Shown: positions 3,989 through 64,000 of the stretch, piece by piece
Numbering within the stretch: position 1 is the first letter of the stretch
How the letters are laid out: each line of letters begins with the position of its first letter
Virus record (IMG/VR): IMGVR_UViG_3300033148_003679
Coordinates: 1 to 64,000 of that record
Origin: a virus
Length of the DNA stretch: 64,000 nucleotides
Direction: 5' to 3' (one strand)
Made by a program: the position numbers and the translations under genes
Notes under the pieces: generated by a model
Seen by the model: only the letters and a program-made list of their open reading frames with translations
Told to the model about the DNA's origin: nothing
Databases searched by the model: none

Positions 3989-4700
3989 TAAAATCCAATC
4001 CCCATGTAAACCCCATCATTGCTCTATGCTTTGCAAATTCTAAATCTTTTTTCACAATCGGTTTTCGTCTTTCATATTCCGCATCTTGCATACCAACATG
4101 TATCTCAGGACTATAATAGTCTACTATAGCATTTTTGTCTAGGGTAAACTTCGTCGGTGAAAAACTTTGGGCAAACCGTAAAAACTCGTTATGGAAATAG
4201 TTGTACTTATATGTAGGGCAAATAAGCTCTCTATCCTTATATCTGTCAAGAAACTTGTTGCCGATAAGAATAACTCTGGCCGGGTGGAATGTCGGGACAC
4301 AGAACTGTCGGATACCTACAATTCCGTCATAATCGGGATATTGAGAAAGTAGAGTTCTGTACGCGTGAGAAATGGCTGCATATTTAAATTCTACCAGCTC
4401 AGACGATAAAAGAAGATGTTCTCCAGCTTTTCTAGCATTTTTCGCAGCTAGATTATATGCGCCAACAATGCCCCAGTGTAAGTATGTACAGTCCAGAGAG
4501 AATTTGGGGTCGTTTGCATACAGCTTTTCAGCCCATTTCACTGCACGGTTACCAGATTTACCACCCACGCTTATAATGTTGACAAGAAAGCTGAAATCGA
4601 CCGGAACCGTCCATGGCAACGAATAAATTGCTCTCTGTAACATATCGTTTCTGTTACGAGTAGGAATTGCTATCCGAATTCGTCTCTCGATCTGTGCCAT
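3981..4700 (-). CDS. Glycosyltransferase, GT-A (GT2-like), possibly degenerate
   Basis: IAIPTRNRNDMLQRAIYSL and GIVGAYNLAA. The usual DxD position reads SSE. Confidence 0.6.
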   Translation of the reverse strand: MAQIERRIRIAIPTRNRNDMLQRAIYSLPWTVPVDFSFLVNIISVGGKSGNRAVKWAEKLYANDPKFSLDCTYLHWGIVGAYNLAAKNARKAGEHLLLSSELVEFKYAAISHAYRTLLSQYPDYDGIVGIRQFCVPTFHPARVILIGNKFLDRYKDRELICPTYKYNYFHNEFLRFAQSFSPTKFTLDKNAIVDYYSPEIHVGMQDAEYERRKPIVKKDLEFAKHRAMMGFTWGLDFNG

Positions 4701-41535: not shown

Positions 41536-41635
41536 GCAGTAGGGTGTGGTGAGGTCGGATAGGGTCGTGTCGGGTGAGGTAAGGTATGGTGCAATGGGGT
41601 AAGGTCAGGTGAGGTAAGGTGCGGTAGGGATTGGT
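41536..41635 (+). repeat. NN-GGY pentamer tract 1 (candidate guide RNA)
   Basis: About 20 in-phase units: gcagt agggt gtggt gaggt...gcggt aggga ttggt. Confidence 0.85.
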
Positions 41636-41690
41636 CTTTCTTCAATAAAGGAATGGTATTAGATAAAAGGAACGAAGTAAGCATTAGAAT

Positions 41691-41845
41691 TTGATAGAGT
41701 AATGTCAAGTAGAGTCGGGTCTGGTCAGGTGCGGTGATGCAAGGTGAGGTGCGGTCGGGTTAAGTACGGTGCGGTGTGGTCATGTCGGGTACGGTCTGGT
41801 GCGGTGCGGTCGGATCTGGTGCGGTAAGATAAGGTGAGGTAAGGT
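41691..41845 (+). repeat. NN-GGY pentamer tract 2
   Basis: About 31 in-phase units with a degenerate 5' end. Confidence 0.85.
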
Positions 41846-41910
41846 TACTTTTTTTCTAGTAAAGGAATGATAGGCAGTAAAGGAGTGCAAATTAGAGTGT
41901 AACATTCAAT

Positions 41911-42025
41911 ATGGTGAGGTATGATAGGGTGGAGCGGGGTCTGGTCGGGTCCGGTCAGGTATGGTGTGGTATGGCGAGGTCCGGTATGGTCAGGTGAGGT
42001 ATGGTACGGTGCGGTGGGGTAGGGT
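41911..42025 (+). repeat. NN-GGY pentamer tract 3
   Basis: 23 in-phase units. Confidence 0.85.
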
Positions 42026-42164
42026 TTGGAACACAAACTCACAATGACCATGATAAAATGCGATGGCAAGTACAAAGAAAGGAGAACGCTTATAAGACAA
42101 CGAATGTGGTGTGGTTGGTTTTGGGAATAGAAGAACGAAAAATAAGTAGAAAGGTAGGTAGCCA

Positions 42165-42770
42165 ATGTATCAATCTGTGAATGTAAAAATAAAGGGTGTG
42201 GCTCCAGTTATGTTTCACAACCCGCAACTTGCAAATCCTCTTAACTCGTTTACACAGGGAATCAAGAAAATCTCTGCAAAACGAAACAAGACAGAAGAAG
42301 ATTTTAAAGAGATGTCCAGACTGGAATTTTTGGGCGGTCTCTATGTAGACGACAAAGGTAAGGTAATCGTTCCGGCAGAAATGCTGGAAGCGTCTCTACT
42401 GTCTGGTGCCAAGAAGAAGAGACGTGGTGCTAAGTTTAAGGCGGCGGTTTTGGTGCCGGAATCAGCTCGTTTGATTTATGACGGGCCGAAAAATATCGAG
42501 AAGTTGGGACGGGACTCTCAGTTTGTCGATATTCGGAACGTTACAATTCAGCGTAATACAATTATGAGAACTCGACCTGTTTTTAAGACATGGCAAGCTG
42601 AGTTTATGATAATGTTTGATTCTACCCTAGTTAATAAGAACGAGGTGGAAGAAGCATTGAACGATGCTGGGCAGCAGTGCGGGATTGGAGATTATCGGCC
42701 AAGATACGGACGGTTTATGGTAGAAAGTTTCGATGTACTTGGCCCTGCAAACGAAGCTGTTACGGTATAG
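42165..42770 (+). CDS. Stand-alone Cas7/RAMP-like RNA-binding protein
   Basis: VKIKGVAPVMFHN (RAMP first strand), VIVPAEMLEASL (cf. IPGSSLKGAL) and the C-terminal Gly-rich loop GIGDYRPRYGRF. Confidence 0.75.
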   Translation: MYQSVNVKIKGVAPVMFHNPQLANPLNSFTQGIKKISAKRNKTEEDFKEMSRLEFLGGLYVDDKGKVIVPAEMLEASLLSGAKKKRRGAKFKAAVLVPESARLIYDGPKNIEKLGRDSQFVDIRNVTIQRNTIMRTRPVFKTWQAEFMIMFDSTLVNKNEVEEALNDAGQQCGIGDYRPRYGRFMVESFDVLGPANEAVTV

Positions 42771-42779
42771 TTAAACAAG

Positions 42780-42837
42780 TTTGCCTCTGCTCTATTGCGT
42801 GAAAGTTTATAGACAAGCGTAATAGGGCAGAGACAAA
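42780..42837 (+). other. 20-bp RNA hairpin between the Cas7-like gene and its partner
   Basis: TTTGCCTCTGCTCTATTGCG pairs with CGTAATAGGGCAGAGACAAA, with two G-U pairs and one mismatch. Confidence 0.7.
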
Positions 42838-42863
42838 TAAATATAATCACGAGGTAAATACAA

Positions 42864-43340
42864 ATGAGTAAGACGAAAGCTATAGTACAGAGTACTTATG
42901 AAGGTCTCGATTTTACAGAGTTACGAAAAGGTGACATTATTTCGGTAGCTGAACTGGAACGTCTGTTTGGCTTTTCCCGTTCTATGAACGCATATTCTCT
43001 TGCAACCATGCAACTCTGTAATGATATTTCGAGATATTTCAGAAGTATCGGTGAAATTGTAACTGTGTGTACAAGAGATTATGCGATTCATATTCTACGC
43101 GATTCTGAAGCTGCCGAGTATAATGCACTGAAGTTTAAACACGGAATTGACACGGCTGACAGAGCACATGAACGCGCTTTAGCCGTTGATATTGGCAACC
43201 TGAAACAGGAAGAGGTTTTAAGACATGACCGTAAGTTGTATATTCAAGGTCGTATATTACAGAGTATACGGGTAGCAAGAAAGAAAGCATGTCGTGTTGT
43301 AGCACATCATAAGGGTGAAGGGATGTTGGTGTTGGAATAG
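42864..43340 (+). CDS. Uncharacterised partner gene inside the pentamer locus
   Basis: 158 aa with a GAGGT RBS, enclosed by tracts. Confidence 0.7.
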   Translation: MSKTKAIVQSTYEGLDFTELRKGDIISVAELERLFGFSRSMNAYSLATMQLCNDISRYFRSIGEIVTVCTRDYAIHILRDSEAAEYNALKFKHGIDTADRAHERALAVDIGNLKQEEVLRHDRKLYIQGRILQSIRVARKKACRVVAHHKGEGMLVLE

Positions 43341-43354
43341 ACGTGGGTTTTGTT

Positions 43355-43539
43355 GAAGTCTAGTAATGCAGGATAAGGTAGGGTGGGGTGCGGTACGGTG
43401 TGGTGCGGTCCGGTCTGGTCTGGTGAGGTAAGGTCGAGTTGGGTCGGGTAGGGTATGGTGCGGTACGGTTTGGTATGGTGATGTTAGGTAGGGTCTGGTT
43501 AGATCGGGCCTGGTGATGTAAGGCAAGGTTGGGTAGGGA
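43355..43539 (+). repeat. NN-GGY pentamer tract 4
   Basis: About 37 in-phase units. Confidence 0.85.
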
Positions 43540-43608
43540 TAGTCTTTCTTTAAGTAAAGGAGTGCAAAATAAAGTGCAAACAAAAAGTGTTGTCGACTGT
43601 TGTGATAT

Positions 43609-43723
43609 AAGGTCAGATCAGGTGAGATCGGATGAGGTCGGGTGATGTCGGGTGATGTCGGGTTGAGTGAGGTCGGGTATGGTCTGGTTCGGTGCGGTCA
43701 GATCTGGTGAGGTATGGTAGGGT
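43609..43723 (+). repeat. NN-GGY pentamer tract 5
   Basis: 23 in-phase units. Confidence 0.85.
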
Positions 43724-43791
43724 TACTCTTTTTCTAGTAAAGGAGTGCAAGTGAAAAGAGTGTAAAAAACATAATTGCAATGAGATTCAAT

Positions 43792-43926
43792 ATGGTGAGG
43801 TGAGGTTTGGTATGGTGAGGTGAGGTCTGGTGAGGTCGGGTGAGGTATGGCTTGGTGGAGTCGGGTCTGGTCGGGTGTGGTGGGGTGGGGTTAGGTAGGG
43901 TATGGTGCGGTTAGGTTCGGTAGGGT
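43792..43926 (+). repeat. NN-GGY pentamer tract 6
   Basis: 27 in-phase units. Confidence 0.85.
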
Positions 43927-43989
43927 TTTTTCCATAAAGGAGTGTAGAATAAAATGCAAACAAAAAGTGTTGTCGATTGTTATTGATAT

Positions 43990-44069
43990 GAGGTCGGATG
44001 GGATTGGGCGCGGTGCGGTCGGGTCGGGTAGGGTTTGGTGGGGTGGGGTGAGGTTTGGTCGGGTAGGGT
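43990..44069 (+). repeat. NN-GGY pentamer tract 7
   Basis: 16 in-phase units. Confidence 0.85.
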
Positions 44070-44128
44070 TTCTCTCTCACATAAACGAATACAAACAAAG
44101 GAGCGAGCAAGTAAGGGAACACAACGTC

Positions 44129-44653
44129 ATGGACAATCACTCGGAAATCAAAGAAGGGTACAAAGTGTGCAGAGTTGTCGATGGCAACAAACTGGTCTCG
44201 GCCACATTTTGTGCTGCGGGTGGACAAGTCAGTTACCATGTTGATACATGGACGTATCCGTTAGTTGGTTGTGGGCCATTAACTGTATTTGATTCATGGG
44301 ACAATGCCAAGAACTTTCAGGAACGAGTACCGAAAAATATCGAACGGATTTATAATGTGTCGATGGTGGTGAAAGGATTTTCGTTTCTTGTTATTAGAAG
44401 ATGTTCATATATACTGTCGCTCGAAAATAAAATATGGATTCAGAGTATGTTGTTTCATTATGATCAGTTATATAATAGAGATATATATACACGGGAAGTT
44501 CTTGTAAACGACTTGCCGCCTAGCACTGTACTTGACAATCAGTTATATAATAGAGATATATATATACGGGAAGTTCTTGCAAATGATTTACCGCATGGTA
44601 CTATACTTGCTGACAGAGTTAAGTTGCACAGATTAGATAAAAGGGAAGTGTGA
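44129..44653 (+). CDS. Hypothetical protein, paralog A
   Basis: EGYKVC...CGPLTVFD...NDLPHGTILA. Start moved past tract 7. Confidence 0.6.
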   Translation: MDNHSEIKEGYKVCRVVDGNKLVSATFCAAGGQVSYHVDTWTYPLVGCGPLTVFDSWDNAKNFQERVPKNIERIYNVSMVVKGFSFLVIRRCSYILSLENKIWIQSMLFHYDQLYNRDIYTREVLVNDLPPSTVLDNQLYNRDIYIREVLANDLPHGTILADRVKLHRLDKREV

Positions 44654-59343: not shown

Positions 59344-60094
59344 ATGGAACAGTGGGAATGGTCGGGAAAGAAATAGATATGGCGGTATTGAAATTGAAGC
59401 AAAGAGCATGAATGGAATAACAGAAAATGTTTACAACAATAGAATGCGTTAAATGCGGTGGTGACGTGAAAGTTGAAAGTTGTCAGATAGATGCTCATGG
59501 AGACATTACGGTTTTATTGTCTCCGTGCAAACAGTGTGTCAAAGAAGCAAAGCAAGAGGGGTATGGCAAAGGGTTCTTACATGGATCGTGTCCTCCTCTT
59601 CCCCCTAGGACGCGACAAAGAGAACGCGATAAGGACAGCAAGTCCGAGCCTGTCGCGGCATATTATGGTGTACGTGATAAAGAAGGGAGATGGTGGAATA
59701 GAGATACTTTGCTGGCAAAGAACCCTTACTTACTCGATCATGCTACTGCCGCGCAGGAGATAATTAACCAGCAGACATATGGATTTGTTACCTGTATGAA
59801 GCCCAAGATTATCGCTTTTGACAAGGACAGGCAGGAGATTGTCGGAGCTGATGAAACCGTATGGCGCGGGTGAAGGAGAGAACGAATGAGCAAACCGAAA
59901 CCAGAAGAGACGTTGAGCGACGGGACGGTCGTGGTGCTTGAGGGTTACACATGGCGTAGAGCTTTGTACGATGATGGTTATGGTGCGCTACGAATCGACG
60001 AACAGGCTGCGGAATCGGCATGTGATGCAGACGAACAAGTTGTAGAAGTCTGGGTAGCAAAGGCAGAGGCGAATGAAGAGAAGGAGGCAGAGAC

Positions 60095-60469
60095 ATGAAG
60101 ATTAAAGAGGGATTAGACGCGGATTGGCAACAATACGTTGAAGTTAATAGCGATCTTTATGGATCTGCTACTGTACAGTATGCTCAACGGTGGGCAGAAC
60201 TGATGGAAGAACGAATGAGTGCCGGTGAATCCATCGCAGAGGGAATGGCTAAAGAAACTTCGCATGCGGCAGATACGGATGGGATTACAGTTTTTATGTA
60301 TGGTGCCGCTGTAAGTATCTTGTCCCATTTCTGGGAGTACGGAGAAGAGTTGCGGCAATGGCATAACCTTTCCACTCAAATTGGTGATGAGGGCGAGAAA
60401 GCGAATGAAGATGGAGAGGTTTTGAATCCAGCGTTGTTAAGTTTTGGAAAGGCAAACGCGAGCAAGTAA
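60095..60469 (+). CDS. Conserved phage hypothetical protein
   Basis: DGITVFMYGAAVSIL...WEYGEELRQWHN...VLNPA. Confidence 0.6.
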   Translation: MKIKEGLDADWQQYVEVNSDLYGSATVQYAQRWAELMEERMSAGESIAEGMAKETSHAADTDGITVFMYGAAVSILSHFWEYGEELRQWHNLSTQIGDEGEKANEDGEVLNPALLSFGKANASK

Positions 60470-60481
60470 GGAGATCGAGAA

Positions 60482-61039
60482 ATGAAGAAGTCGAAAGTTG
60501 TAGTGATAGGTGTTGCAGTTCTGGTTGGAGCGGTGCTTGGATTTGGCTGGGCGTGGCTGCCGGGCGGGTTGGAGTATCGGGCTGCCCAGGCGCAAGCCGA
60601 ACCAGAGTTGCCGGCCAACACGAAACTGACAAGTCAGGCGGTCGATATTGTCGTTCGGGTCGCTGCCGATCTGTCAGCCCGATATGACGTCGATAAAGTC
60701 AACATCTATGTTCAGCCGCTCGGCGGCGACTGGGAACTGATATACACGGAAGAAAACGTGTTGCCAGGCGATGAGGTGCCGTTTACCGTCAATATGGCTG
60801 AAGGTACAGTCTGGTTGGTTGGCGCGACGTTGGTTGACCCCGCAGGCAAAGAAAGTGTGATGAAAGGTACATTGCGTTATCCCGGACAAGACGAGCCTCT
60901 GTACCTAGAATGGGACACGACTCCGCCGCCAGCACCTGATGTACTGTTACTTGGCTCGGCAGACGTGAACGGCGACAAGTTTGTGAACGCTATTGACATC
61001 CAGCTTGTAATCAACGCGGTATTGGGATACGTTGCGTAA
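60482..61039 (+). CDS. Exported protein with C-terminal dockerin-like / EF-hand repeat
   Basis: N-terminal signal or TM segment; ADVNGDKFVNAIDIQLVINAVLG. Confidence 0.7.
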   Translation: MKKSKVVVIGVAVLVGAVLGFGWAWLPGGLEYRAAQAQAEPELPANTKLTSQAVDIVVRVAADLSARYDVDKVNIYVQPLGGDWELIYTEENVLPGDEVPFTVNMAEGTVWLVGATLVDPAGKESVMKGTLRYPGQDEPLYLEWDTTPPPAPDVLLLGSADVNGDKFVNAIDIQLVINAVLGYVA

Positions 61040-61073
61040 AAGAATTTAAGAGAAGTGCGCGAAAGGAATAAAA

Positions 61074-61244
61074 ATGAAACCATATCTGTTGGACGATGAA
61101 CCTGTAACATCAAATGAGCTTATTGACGCTGCAAGGCGAATTGATCCCGTCTTCGGTCAAGATGGATTTCTAACAACTTCTGGTGCCGCACGCATACTTA
61201 GAAGTGCTGGCTATGAAGTAGAAGAAAACGAGAGGCACACATGA
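61074..61244 (+). CDS. Small hypothetical protein (56 aa, not in the ORF track)
   Basis: AAGGA RBS; MKPYLLDDEP...ERHT. Confidence 0.55.
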   Translation: MKPYLLDDEPVTSNELIDAARRIDPVFGQDGFLTTSGAARILRSAGYEVEENERHT

Positions 61245-61388
61245 ACGGAATAGACACCGATAAACATAGCGGCGGTTGACATCCAACTCGTAATCAACGC
61301 TGCACTGGGGTACGCGTAAATAATGATTCTGTTTTACGAACAATGGTGACCGGCTTCGCCAACTGACGTTCACATTAGACTGAACCCG

Positions 61389-61895
61389 TTGTTCGCGCAT
61401 AAAAAGGAGAGACTCATGATGCGGTATATCATAACGCAAGCGCATCTTGACGCTGCTCGAAACGCACATGCATGCGAGTCCAGGCTGAACCTATACCATG
61501 CTGGCGACAACCTGTTTGACAAACTGACGTACGACGATGCGGTTTGGATTGAAGATAATTTGCCGGGCAATGCAAAATCGATATTGAATGCTTTCGGCGT
61601 ACCGCTTTACGCTATGGCGCGCGACGGCTGCGGCTACGGCCACGGTTACGGCTACGGCGACGGCAATGGCTATGGCTATGGTTACAGCTCCGGCGACGGT
61701 TACGGCTACGGCTATGGCTATGGCTACGGCGACGGCTCCGGCTCCGGCTCCGGCGACGGTTACGGCTACGGCTATGGCGACGGCTACAGCTCCGGTTCCG
61801 GCTTCGGTTCCGGCTTCGGCCACGGCTCCGGCTCCGGCTACGGCTATGGCGACGGCTATGGCGACGGCTACGGCTATAGCTACTGCGACAATTAA
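61389..61895 (+). CDS. Gly/Tyr-rich repeat protein, paralog 1
   Basis: GYGYGDG repeats. Likely start is MMRYIITQ. Confidence 0.75.
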   Translation: MFAHKKERLMMRYIITQAHLDAARNAHACESRLNLYHAGDNLFDKLTYDDAVWIEDNLPGNAKSILNAFGVPLYAMARDGCGYGHGYGYGDGNGYGYGYSSGDGYGYGYGYGYGDGSGSGSGDGYGYGYGDGYSSGSGFGSGFGHGSGSGYGYGDGYGDGYGYSYCDN

Positions 61896-61925
61896 CATCG
61901 GGTTTGTGATCAACGCGGTGCCGGG

Positions 61926-62291
61926 ATGGGTATAGGCGACACGTTGGATGATAATGTTGTTGGACGAAACAAAACGAACATGAGGAGACAAACGATGACT
62001 AACAAAAAGAGACATGTAATTGTGACCACAGACTCTAGCCGACGAGGGGTATTTTTCGGAACGCTCAAATCGGGTGATGTCGGTAGCCCGGTAGAGTTGA
62101 CAGATGCTCGGATGATCGTCTATTGGTCTGCCGCCACACATGGGGTACTTGGCTTGGCGGCGACAGGCCCGGCAGATGGGTCGAGAGTGGGGCCCAGTGT
62201 ACCACAAATCCGGCTCGATGGTGTAACGGCGATCATCGAGTGTACACCAGAAGCTGTTGCACGATTTGCAAGCGGTGAACTCTGGAGTTGA
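61926..62291 (+). CDS. DUF6948-like protein
   Basis: VIVTTDSSRRGVFFG...LTDARMIVYW...LAATGP. Likely start is MTNKKRH. Confidence 0.7.
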   Translation: MGIGDTLDDNVVGRNKTNMRRQTMTNKKRHVIVTTDSSRRGVFFGTLKSGDVGSPVELTDARMIVYWSAATHGVLGLAATGPADGSRVGPSVPQIRLDGVTAIIECTPEAVARFASGELWS

Positions 62292-62662
62292 AAACGATGA
62301 TGCGATACATCATAACGCAGGCGGATATTGACGCTGCCAGAACAGCACGTGCATGTGAAAATAGACTGAACCTATACCATGTTGGCGACGATCTGTTTGA
62401 CAAGCTGACGTATACAGATGCAGTCTGGATCGAAGATAAATTGCCGGACAGTGCAAAAACGATATTGAATGCTTTTAGCGTACCGCTTTACGCTATGGCG
62501 CGCGACGGCTGCGGCGACGGCTTCGGCTACGGCGACGGCTCCGGCTTCGGCTTCGGCTATGGCTACAGCTCCGGTTCCGGCTTCGGCTCCGGCTTCGGCT
62601 ACGGCTACAGCGACGGTTCTGGCGACGGCTTCGGCCACGGCTACGGCAGCGGCGACAATTAA
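62288..62662 (+). CDS. Gly-rich repeat protein, paralog 2
   Basis: N-terminal domain nearly identical to paralog 1. Confidence 0.75.
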   Translation: MKTMMRYIITQADIDAARTARACENRLNLYHVGDDLFDKLTYTDAVWIEDKLPDSAKTILNAFSVPLYAMARDGCGDGFGYGDGSGFGFGYGYSSGSGFGSGFGYGYSDGSGDGFGHGYGSGDN

Positions 62663-62716
62663 CATCGGGTTTGTGATCAACGCGGTGCCGAGATGGGCAT
62701 AGCATGAAAGGATGAA

Positions 62717-62971
62717 ATGATGGATTGGGAATATATAAATACTTGGGTACGGGCGATGTCTCAAGAGTTCGGCGGCATTGTGTATGATAAAGAAGACGGA
62801 AACAGACGCCTTGATTGGGGGCAAGCATTATGTCGCCAAGTGTTCGGGATTGATTGGATGAACAATCCTGCATGGCGAGATGCTGACAATTCGCCGACAG
62901 TTCCCCTTGAGGTATGGAAAGCTGCGAAAAAATGGCGTCATGGCGATTGGCCTGAATGGGCAGAGGTATAA
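62717..62971 (+). CDS. Hypothetical Trp-rich protein
   Basis: AAGGA RBS; 84 aa. Confidence 0.5.
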   Translation: MMDWEYINTWVRAMSQEFGGIVYDKEDGNRRLDWGQALCRQVFGIDWMNNPAWRDADNSPTVPLEVWKAAKKWRHGDWPEWAEV

Positions 62972-63150
62972 ACCAATGAAATAACTTTTGCAGCCAGCGG
63001 CGGCGCGATGGCGCGTCGGTAAGGGTATGCGCTCTTGCTATCAGGATTAGTGGTGCGACGACAGCCCATGTAAAGGTCGGAAAAGGCGTATACGTGAAGG
63101 GAAGTACGGTGGGGTAACCGTACCTGCTGGCCGCGCATGAAAGGAAACGG

Positions 63151-63324
63151 ATGATGATACAGACATTGAACGGAGTTTTAATTCCCGAAACCATAGCTGA
63201 GGCAGAGTTTCTATATGATGGGACAAACGATATTTCCGATCTCGACAATCCCGACAAGACATCTGCCGAGGCCGTAGCAAGACACCTTGCAGAACAAAAG
63301 GCAAAATACGGAATAAGAGACTGA
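63151..63324 (+). CDS. Small hypothetical protein (57 aa)
   Basis: Follows the repeated CCTGCTGGCCGCGCATGAAAGGA leader. Confidence 0.5.
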   Translation: MMIQTLNGVLIPETIAEAEFLYDGTNDISDLDNPDKTSAEAVARHLAEQKAKYGIRD

Positions 63325-63411
63325 CCATGCGGCCAGCGGCGATCTGGCATGTAGCACAATTCTAGATCGATGCTTGGCCAGATTCCTGCTGGCCGCGCAT
63401 GAAAGGATGAG

Positions 63412-63636
63412 ATGATGAGAAGAGATTTGATATTCAAAGTGCATGAGACTTGCCGAGATAAAAAATATCCAGGCGTAGCTGATCTTTTCGCTTTCAACGA
63501 AACTATTGATGCTGGGATTGGCAGTGCTTATACTTCAGTAACAATGGATCTTCTTGAAGATCTTGATACTGAACTTGCCACAAGAGTTATGGCTGGAGAG
63601 ACAATAAGATGTCGATTGGAAATTGTAACTGACTAA
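63412..63636 (+). CDS. Hypothetical protein
   Basis: Follows the same repeated leader. Confidence 0.5.
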   Translation: MMRRDLIFKVHETCRDKKYPGVADLFAFNETIDAGIGSAYTSVTMDLLEDLDTELATRVMAGETIRCRLEIVTD

Positions 63637-64000
63637 CTTTTGCAGCCAGTGGCAACGTATAAACTCAACGCGGCAAAAGAGGGGTGTACAGAATGAGAAT
63701 AGCAACACTACCTAATTGCAGTGAATGTGGGCGATTTTGTATCCCACAAGATAGCGGCACAATGTATGGTAGTTATAATGATTATGAGCCGCCCGAAGAT
63801 GTTCTGTTGTGCCCACGTTGTGCCGATAGAAAGATGGCAGAAGCGATAAGGGCCCCCGCAACAATCATAGTCGGGTGTTGGTGGAGGAAACCGGATTATG
63901 TATCTGTAGCAAAAAGTATTTTACGCCACAGAAGGAAACATGGCAATGTTCAAGACCCTAAGTGATACGAAGTATATTGGTGTTGACCCGGGATTGTAAC

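Follow-up and report, generated by a model that had tools for sequence, protein, structure and literature searches.

A probable VIPR locus with seven GGTNN tracts in the complete genome of an uncultured phage

The IMG/VR virus record IMGVR_UViG_3300033148_003679 is a complete phage genome of 84,323 bases with direct terminal repeats, and the window analyzed here, its first 64,000 bases, carries at 41.5-44.1 kb a locus in which seven tracts of a repeated GGTNN unit flank two open reading frames (ORFs), three tracts upstream and four downstream. The first ORF encodes a homologue of Vipr, the RAMP protein of the Viral Interference Programmable Repeat (VIPR) system, and the second encodes a candidate for the accessory (vap) protein. 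We consider it very likely that the seven tracts, vipr and vap make up a VIPR locus of this uncultured phage, with the tracts as its guide RNAs.

VIPR was reported in 2026 as a CRISPR-like DNA silencer (10.64898/2026.04.26.720920). The system comprises the ~20-kDa RAMP protein Vipr, the accessory gene vap and vrRNAs of 9-16 YNNGG repeats followed by a 3' tail, and it follows a '1-nt skip' rule under which the NN dinucleotides of the vrRNA pair with double-stranded DNA and one base, mostly the codon wobble position, is skipped; the evidence for this rule comes from DNA binding, repression of GFP and targets found in nature (10.64898/2026.04.26.720920). Cryo-electron microscopy structures display the gapped pairing (10.64898/2026.04.26.720927), and VIPR biology with a phage satellite has been described, including a natural target with codon periodicity and natural footprints down to six units (10.64898/2026.10.15.759431). 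A first-pass annotation of the window had proposed that guides from these tracts pair two bases and skip the third, with the gap at the wobble position. That proposal coincides with the published VIPR mechanism, and at this locus it is accompanied by a Vipr homologue, kept GGY contacts and a fitting NN composition; the two-base/skip-one guide idea is right but already published.

The Vipr homologue

By sequence comparison and structure modeling, the 201-aa product of the first ORF is a Vipr homologue with a predicted Cas7/Csm3-like RAMP fold. Searching with phmmer matched the protein to PDB chain 36pp_D, 'SUSP1 Vipr protein', at E 4.9e-36 over residues 5-188, and a profile of 45 relatives matched the same chain at E 2e-56. 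The protein also matches phrog_4652 (E 2.4e-54). Its AlphaFold2 (AF2) model has a pLDDT of 95.1, and the folds closest to the model are Csm3/Cas7 backbone subunits (9ash_F at E 5.4e-7; 99 chains at E <= 0.001).

The residues listed for SUSP1 Vipr as contacts to G1, G2, Y3 or the skip base are H17, K33, E71, M72, R138, C173, D177, W178 and R179 (10.64898/2026.04.26.720927). Aligned to these are H18, K34, E72, M73, R137, C172, D176, Y177 and R178 of the protein studied here, so that eight of nine are identical and W178 is replaced by Y177; positions were counted by hand on the printed pairwise alignment and the residues were then checked in the window protein. Within the 45-member family alignment four of the contact residues are kept in nearly every sequence (H18 in 44/45, R137 in 45/45, D176 in 43/45 and R178 in 43/45).

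The GGTNN tracts

Scanning the whole 84,323-base genome for 5-periodic GGY runs returned seven, all on the + strand and all within 41,538-44,071, and none on the - strand. Every tract holds one phase from end to end, and together they contain 172 GGTNN units (Table 1). The tracts lie where the first-pass annotation placed them, and its NN strings for tracts 2, 3 and 5 agree unit for unit with those read here. Its description of GA, CG, GC, AT and CT as prevailing, with TA and TG scarce, also agrees with the counts, which are 25 GA, 23 CG, 16 GC, 15 AT, 14 AG, 13 CT, 7 TA and 4 TG among the 172 NN.

In the tail alignment, the sequence GGTAGGG, a pyrimidine run and TAAAGGA(A/G)TG are common to six of the seven tracts, and the tails of tracts 3 and 7 diverge. 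RNAalifold predicted 0 pairs on the tails, and folds of single tails were no better than shuffles except for that of tract 3, where a hairpin just upstream of vipr reaches -13 kcal/mol (z -2.5). Near-identical linkers precede tract 5 (43576-43610) and tract 7 (43955-43990); each has at its start AAAGGAG, which resembles a Shine-Dalgarno sequence, and a start codon from which a short frame enters the tract.

The locus resembles the SUSP1/Felixounavirus VIPR system (type II in 10.64898/2026.04.26.720920; PDB 36pp) in its homologous Vipr (~36% identity), its GGY/NN pentamer, its location on a phage, the lack of a self-target here as well, the placement of vrRNA genes on either side of the vipr-accessory pair and the conserved 3' tail on each tract. 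It differs in having seven vrRNAs rather than four and a tail of another sequence with no predicted pseudoknot.

Likeness to class 1 CRISPR-Cas lies in the backbone, a Cas7/Csm3 filament on crRNA, whose RAMP fold the protein here shares by its model; VIPR likewise has one protomer per repeat unit and thumb-driven periodic base flipping, as the structural preprint describes (10.64898/2026.04.26.720927). Unlike those systems, the locus has no repeat-spacer array, and its guide would be non-contiguous, with two of every five bases read, as against five of every six. A CRISPR array was considered and rejected: the units are 5 bases long, Rfam searches at the gathering threshold and at E <= 1 found no CRISPR repeat or other Rfam family at the locus, and the 10 neighboring ORFs scanned contain no cas domains.

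Composition of the variable dinucleotides

The first-pass annotation had read the NN as resembling codon positions 1 and 2, and composition statistics favor this sense reading both at the locus and across the family. The 172 NN differ from the genome dinucleotide background (chi-square 80.4, p 6e-11). Only 11 of them are TA or TG, where the background predicts 24.1 (binomial p 0.0013) and codon positions 1-2 predict 12.9. With codon statistics taken from 87 long ORFs of the phage's own genome, a sense codon 1-2 model gained about +14.2 to +14.3 bits over background, whereas the other five phases scored -13.5 to -26.4 bits. This gain is close to the 13.8 +- 6.3 expected if the NN were drawn from the model itself, and none of 20,000 background draws reached it. 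For 2096 units from other loci, the codon 1-2 model scored +68.3 bits and the other phases -34 to -375, with a lead of ~100 bits over the next model and an expectation-maximization weight of 0.72.

The NN also deviate from codon-model expectations (chi-square 63.6, p 6e-8), chiefly through CG, which makes up 13.4% of them against 4.3% expected. Codon models expect 4-7%. If the final two units of every tract are excluded, the CG share is 14.6% here and 4.6% in 74 other VIPR loci.

Related Vipr loci

Homologous vipr genes with ~36% identity were found by tblastn in 131 phage records, those of Felixounavirus, Gordonia and Mycobacterium phages. Two of these, phages wV8 and Trine, were inspected, and in both GGYNN tracts adjoin the Vipr gene in the arrangement seen here. 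The tracts of Gordonia phage Trine (L002:3628-3850) are GGCNN tracts that lie inside a coding sequence annotated as 'hypothetical protein' right after the Vipr homologue, and after each comes a tail with the tRNA T-arm-like GGTTCGACTCC. The vrRNA tails of phage wV8 (L001:2750-2807 and 4143-4200) are annotated in GenBank merely as 'repeat_region DR_4'.

The association also holds in metagenomic viruses. Among 80 fetched IMG/VR loci with a Vipr homologue (35-46% identity), one or more GGYNN tracts accompany the gene on its own strand in 74. These 80 loci contain 219 tracts, of which 217 lie within 1.5 kb of vipr; just 4 tracts are on the opposite strand. Tracts in these loci have a median of 13 units and a maximum of 48, and 18 of the 219 have at least 20 units, as compared with six of the seven tracts here; the NN here are also richer in CG. 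Two of the loci share vipr DNA that is 94.6% identical and have kept their tails, yet the NN strings of their upstream tracts are wholly different, which is the behavior expected of exchangeable guides.

Homology with the SUSP1 system leads us to expect that each tract would be transcribed from the + strand and that one Vipr protomer would bind per GGT and flip it out, so that the NN dinucleotides would be displayed in a helical filament. The NNs would then pair with double-stranded DNA, skipping every third target base, and DNA bound in this way would be silenced at transcription; under the 1-nt skip, the longest tract, of 33 units, would correspond to ~99 bp of target. Synonymous mutations would offer a target no escape, because the skipped base would lie at the wobble position of a coding target. 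The pairing code proposed for this locus rests on homology and statistics and not on a target, and we infer both the skip rule for its clade and every target.

Target searches and the weight of contrary evidence

Several observations weigh against the assignment to VIPR. Ten scans of public collections, which covered all seven tracts with exact seeds of 8-10 units at gap 1 only, shuffled guides being compared just in the local searches, returned 157 hits and no natural target (Table 2). The best extension per scan was 10-14 units and at most 69% of the tract (tract 7, 11/16), short of the 80% NN match that serves as the published natural-target threshold (10.64898/2026.04.26.720920). Locally, 183 unique tracts compared at gaps 0-3 with 1.1 Mb of Vipr loci and the phage's own genome gave best runs equal to those of shuffles. 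Chance seed hits of tract 7 fall mostly out of phase, with sense phase 1 in 3 of 36. No codon model predicts the CG share of 13.4%, and when a pooled codon model is applied to the window alone, codon 1-2 (+16.8 bits) separates poorly from antisense 2-3 (+12.9 bits). The tails lack a significant fold overall, as against the pseudoknot in SUSP1 tails, and the tracts have 16-33 units compared with the 9-16 described for vrRNAs.

Table 2. Gap-1 scans of public collections with exact seeds
Tract	Seed (units)	Collection	Hits	Best extension (units of tract)
1	8	viral	62	11/20
2	9	viral	1	10/27
3	8	viral	12	11/24
3	10	metagenome	0	
4	8	viral	14	12/33
5	8	viral	7	10/24
6	9	genome_contigs	8	14/28
6	9	metagenome	17	14/28
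6	10	viral	0	
7	8	viral	36	11/16

Power is low in these exact-seed scans: a hit takes 8-10 perfectly matching units, no particular host could be aimed at, and natural footprints can be as small as six units (10.64898/2026.10.15.759431). A positive control, blastn of the wV8 tail against E. coli genomes, returned nothing, and the published SUSP1 targets were not reproduced. The first-pass annotation had seen no self-target by eye, and this held for the full 84-kb genome, where the longest runs at gaps 0-3, of 4-6 units, are matched by shuffles (30 per tract). The gap search that it had proposed produced no target, either at gaps 0-3 in the own genome and the 1.1 Mb of loci or at gap 1 in the public collections. 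A degenerate-peptide BLOSUM scan of the fetched loci and the own genome (4.9 million six-frame residues) returned seed-driven hits alone.

When 145 chance seed hits were placed relative to the longest open frame, sense phase 1 was found in 55, driven by tracts 1 (39/62) and 4 (10/14). This phase pattern is a restatement of composition and no evidence of a target. One conserved sequence accounts for 11 of the 25 seed hits of tract 6 in the genome and metagenome collections and was judged a chance match. It matches 12-14 of 28 units, its seed frame reads through a stop codon, and ARAGORN finds no tRNA in it; in one of the hits (L105) it lies ~10 bases upstream of an ATG, and the organism titles, present for four hits, are all proteobacterial.

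Tract 6 gave a resemblance to a gene family. Three of the eight genome hits of its 9-unit seed are in-frame 'RLRVGGYRII' genes, two of which are Pfam ParE_toxin. A comparison of tract 6 with relatives of the seeded ParE (12/26) was circular, and it was replaced by a seed-independent set of 18 genes, the 19 PF05016 matches in five genomes minus the seed-carrying gene. Read as NNx in sense (NN followed by one free base), tract 6 scored a mean best of 30.9 against these genes, compared with 24.0 +- 1.4 for unit shuffles, a value reached by 1 of 1000 shuffles and by none of 500 random draws from other tracts, and this p-value is post hoc in that the ParE family was picked after the tract 6 string had been seen. 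The remaining six tracts showed no excess over shuffles against the ParE set. Alternative decodings of tract 6 scored z 0.5 (antisense 1-2) and z -0.5 (sense 2-3), while antisense 2-3 also reached z 2.6, attained by 1 of 60 shuffles; this last value and the post hoc choice of family belong among the contrary points above. The phage's own genome contains no ParE gene.

We regard the resemblance of the tract 6 reading to ParE toxins as suggestive. That tract 6 has a RelE/ParE-family toxin gene as its target is a doubtful but conceivable reading, in which VIPR would silence a toxin-antitoxin or abortive-infection module of the host or of a rival element; the long tracts could also represent a long-guide or multi-footprint variant.

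Alternative explanations

An improbable alternative is that the locus is of VIPR type but that its divergent clade, with 36% identity between its Vipr and the SUSP1-like one, longer tracts and another tail, follows a different rule in reading guides, such as a different skip size, RNA targets or short non-coding footprints, with the codon-like NN then incidental. The absence of a gap-1 target in any search, the tail without a predicted pseudoknot, the lack of phase bias in the chance hits of tracts 5, 6 and 7, and the CG excess and (GA CG)x4 of tract 5, which are odd for coding targets, all fit such a rule. On the other side, the unit is also 5 bases and the GGY and skip-base contacts are kept apart from one W to Y change, gap 1 was not outdone by gap 0, 2 or 3 in the local searches, the NN composition fits codon positions 1-2 here and family-wide, and tract 6 fits ParE most clearly in the sense 1-2 reading.

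Periodic protein-binding arrays resemble a GGT in every 5 bases, and two-tetrad G-quadruplexes are possible in such DNA. That the tracts are a protein-binding or structural repeat with no guide function, for example a TRAP-like array or G2-tract quadruplex DNA, would be in keeping with the failure to find a target; we think this very improbable in view of the neighboring protein, which is homologous to a solved guide-RNA-binding protein, the codon-like NN composition, and the wholesale NN swap between loci with 94.6% identical vipr, which fits specificity cassettes. Least credible is a coding role, in which the - strand frames of 55-150 aa through the tracts (ORFs of 115, 106, 108, 55 and 150 aa) would be repetitive proteins, since the period is 5 and not 3, so that the invariant GGT takes every codon position in turn, ACCNN repeats are stop-poor through composition alone, beyond 30 kb all neighboring genes are on the + strand and so is the GC skew, and related loci carry the same tracts with unrelated NN.

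Accessory gene, intergenic hairpin and genomic setting

The coordinates of the tracts and of the other features of the probable VIPR locus are collected in Table 1.

Table 1. Features of the probable VIPR locus, in window positions
Feature	Coordinates	Strand	Description
Candidate vrRNA tract 1	41538..41637	+	20 GGTNN units; conserved tail to ~41670
Candidate vrRNA tract 2	41713..41847	+	27 units, then tail
Candidate vrRNA tract 3	41908..42027	+	24 units; divergent tail with hairpin just upstream of vipr
vipr	42165..42770	+	201-aa predicted RAMP protein, homologue of SUSP1 Vipr
Hairpin between vipr and vap	42779..42838	+	strong; 21 pairs, -30 kcal/mol, z -5.9
vap candidate	42864..43340	+	158-aa accessory protein, no named family
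Candidate vrRNA tract 4	43372..43536	+	33 units, then tail
Candidate vrRNA tract 5	43606..43725	+	24 units including (GA CG)x4; tail with weak 9-bp hairpin
Candidate vrRNA tract 6	43789..43928	+	28 units; units 15-23 as NNx read as ParE/RelE motif RLRVGGYR
Candidate vrRNA tract 7	43992..44071	+	16 units; divergent tail; next gene ATG at 44129

In 18 of the 80 IMG/VR loci a homologue of the 158-aa ORF adjoins vipr, and the ORF's protein has relatives in 822 cluster representatives at E <= 0.001. No sequence match was found in Pfam, PHROG or PDB. The AF2 model (pLDDT 87.4) predicts a helix-helix-beta-hairpin unit and, after it, a long helical hairpin. Foldseek returned nothing at E < 0.28 for this fold, and the weaker rows are mostly winged-helix regulators, so that DNA binding is only hinted at by rows with E > 0.28; VIA-align on the model matched the helical hairpin alone. 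The protein is unrelated in sequence to the gene 3' of vipr in phage wV8 (E 5.3), in which the locus differs from that of wV8.

The hairpin between vipr and vap was equalled by none of 200 shuffles, and no T-run lies 3' of its stem; it could be a processing or attenuation site. A promoter and terminator scan showed no excess at the locus.

Beyond ~30 kb the genes of the window lie on the + strand, and the GC skew agrees. Searches with the terminase and capsid proteins found no close cultured relative of the phage, the best matches being just 25-30% identical and belonging to unrelated phages, and blastn of the locus DNA against phages gave no match. The - strand region at 6125-31196 encodes a class II-like ribonucleotide reductase with a TSCPD domain, two DNA methyltransferases, a radical SAM protein, an oxidoreductase, a glycosyltransferase, an SU10-type capsid protein and an SPP1-type portal. 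The ORF downstream of the locus contains, at 44463-44609, a tandem duplication of 75 bases (2 copies, 87% match), and G+C rises to 0.50-0.51 at 60001-64000 from ~0.41 in the rest of the window.

Implications

Sequence alone led the first-pass annotation to the core of what was discovered in 2026, namely that a guide code can be non-contiguous and disregard wobble bases. In principle the locus adds little to that discovery, and it offers a well-defined example of a probable VIPR system in the complete genome of a phage that has no close cultured relative. Its local peculiarities are the seven candidate guides, the long tracts, the different tail, the CG-rich NN, the hairpin between vipr and vap, and an accessory family whose relatives number in the hundreds. 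Should tract 6 indeed read as ParE, toxin-antitoxin or defense genes would be among the targets of VIPR, and this would point to an RNA-guided anti-defense role that goes beyond the silencing of satellites and prophages so far described.

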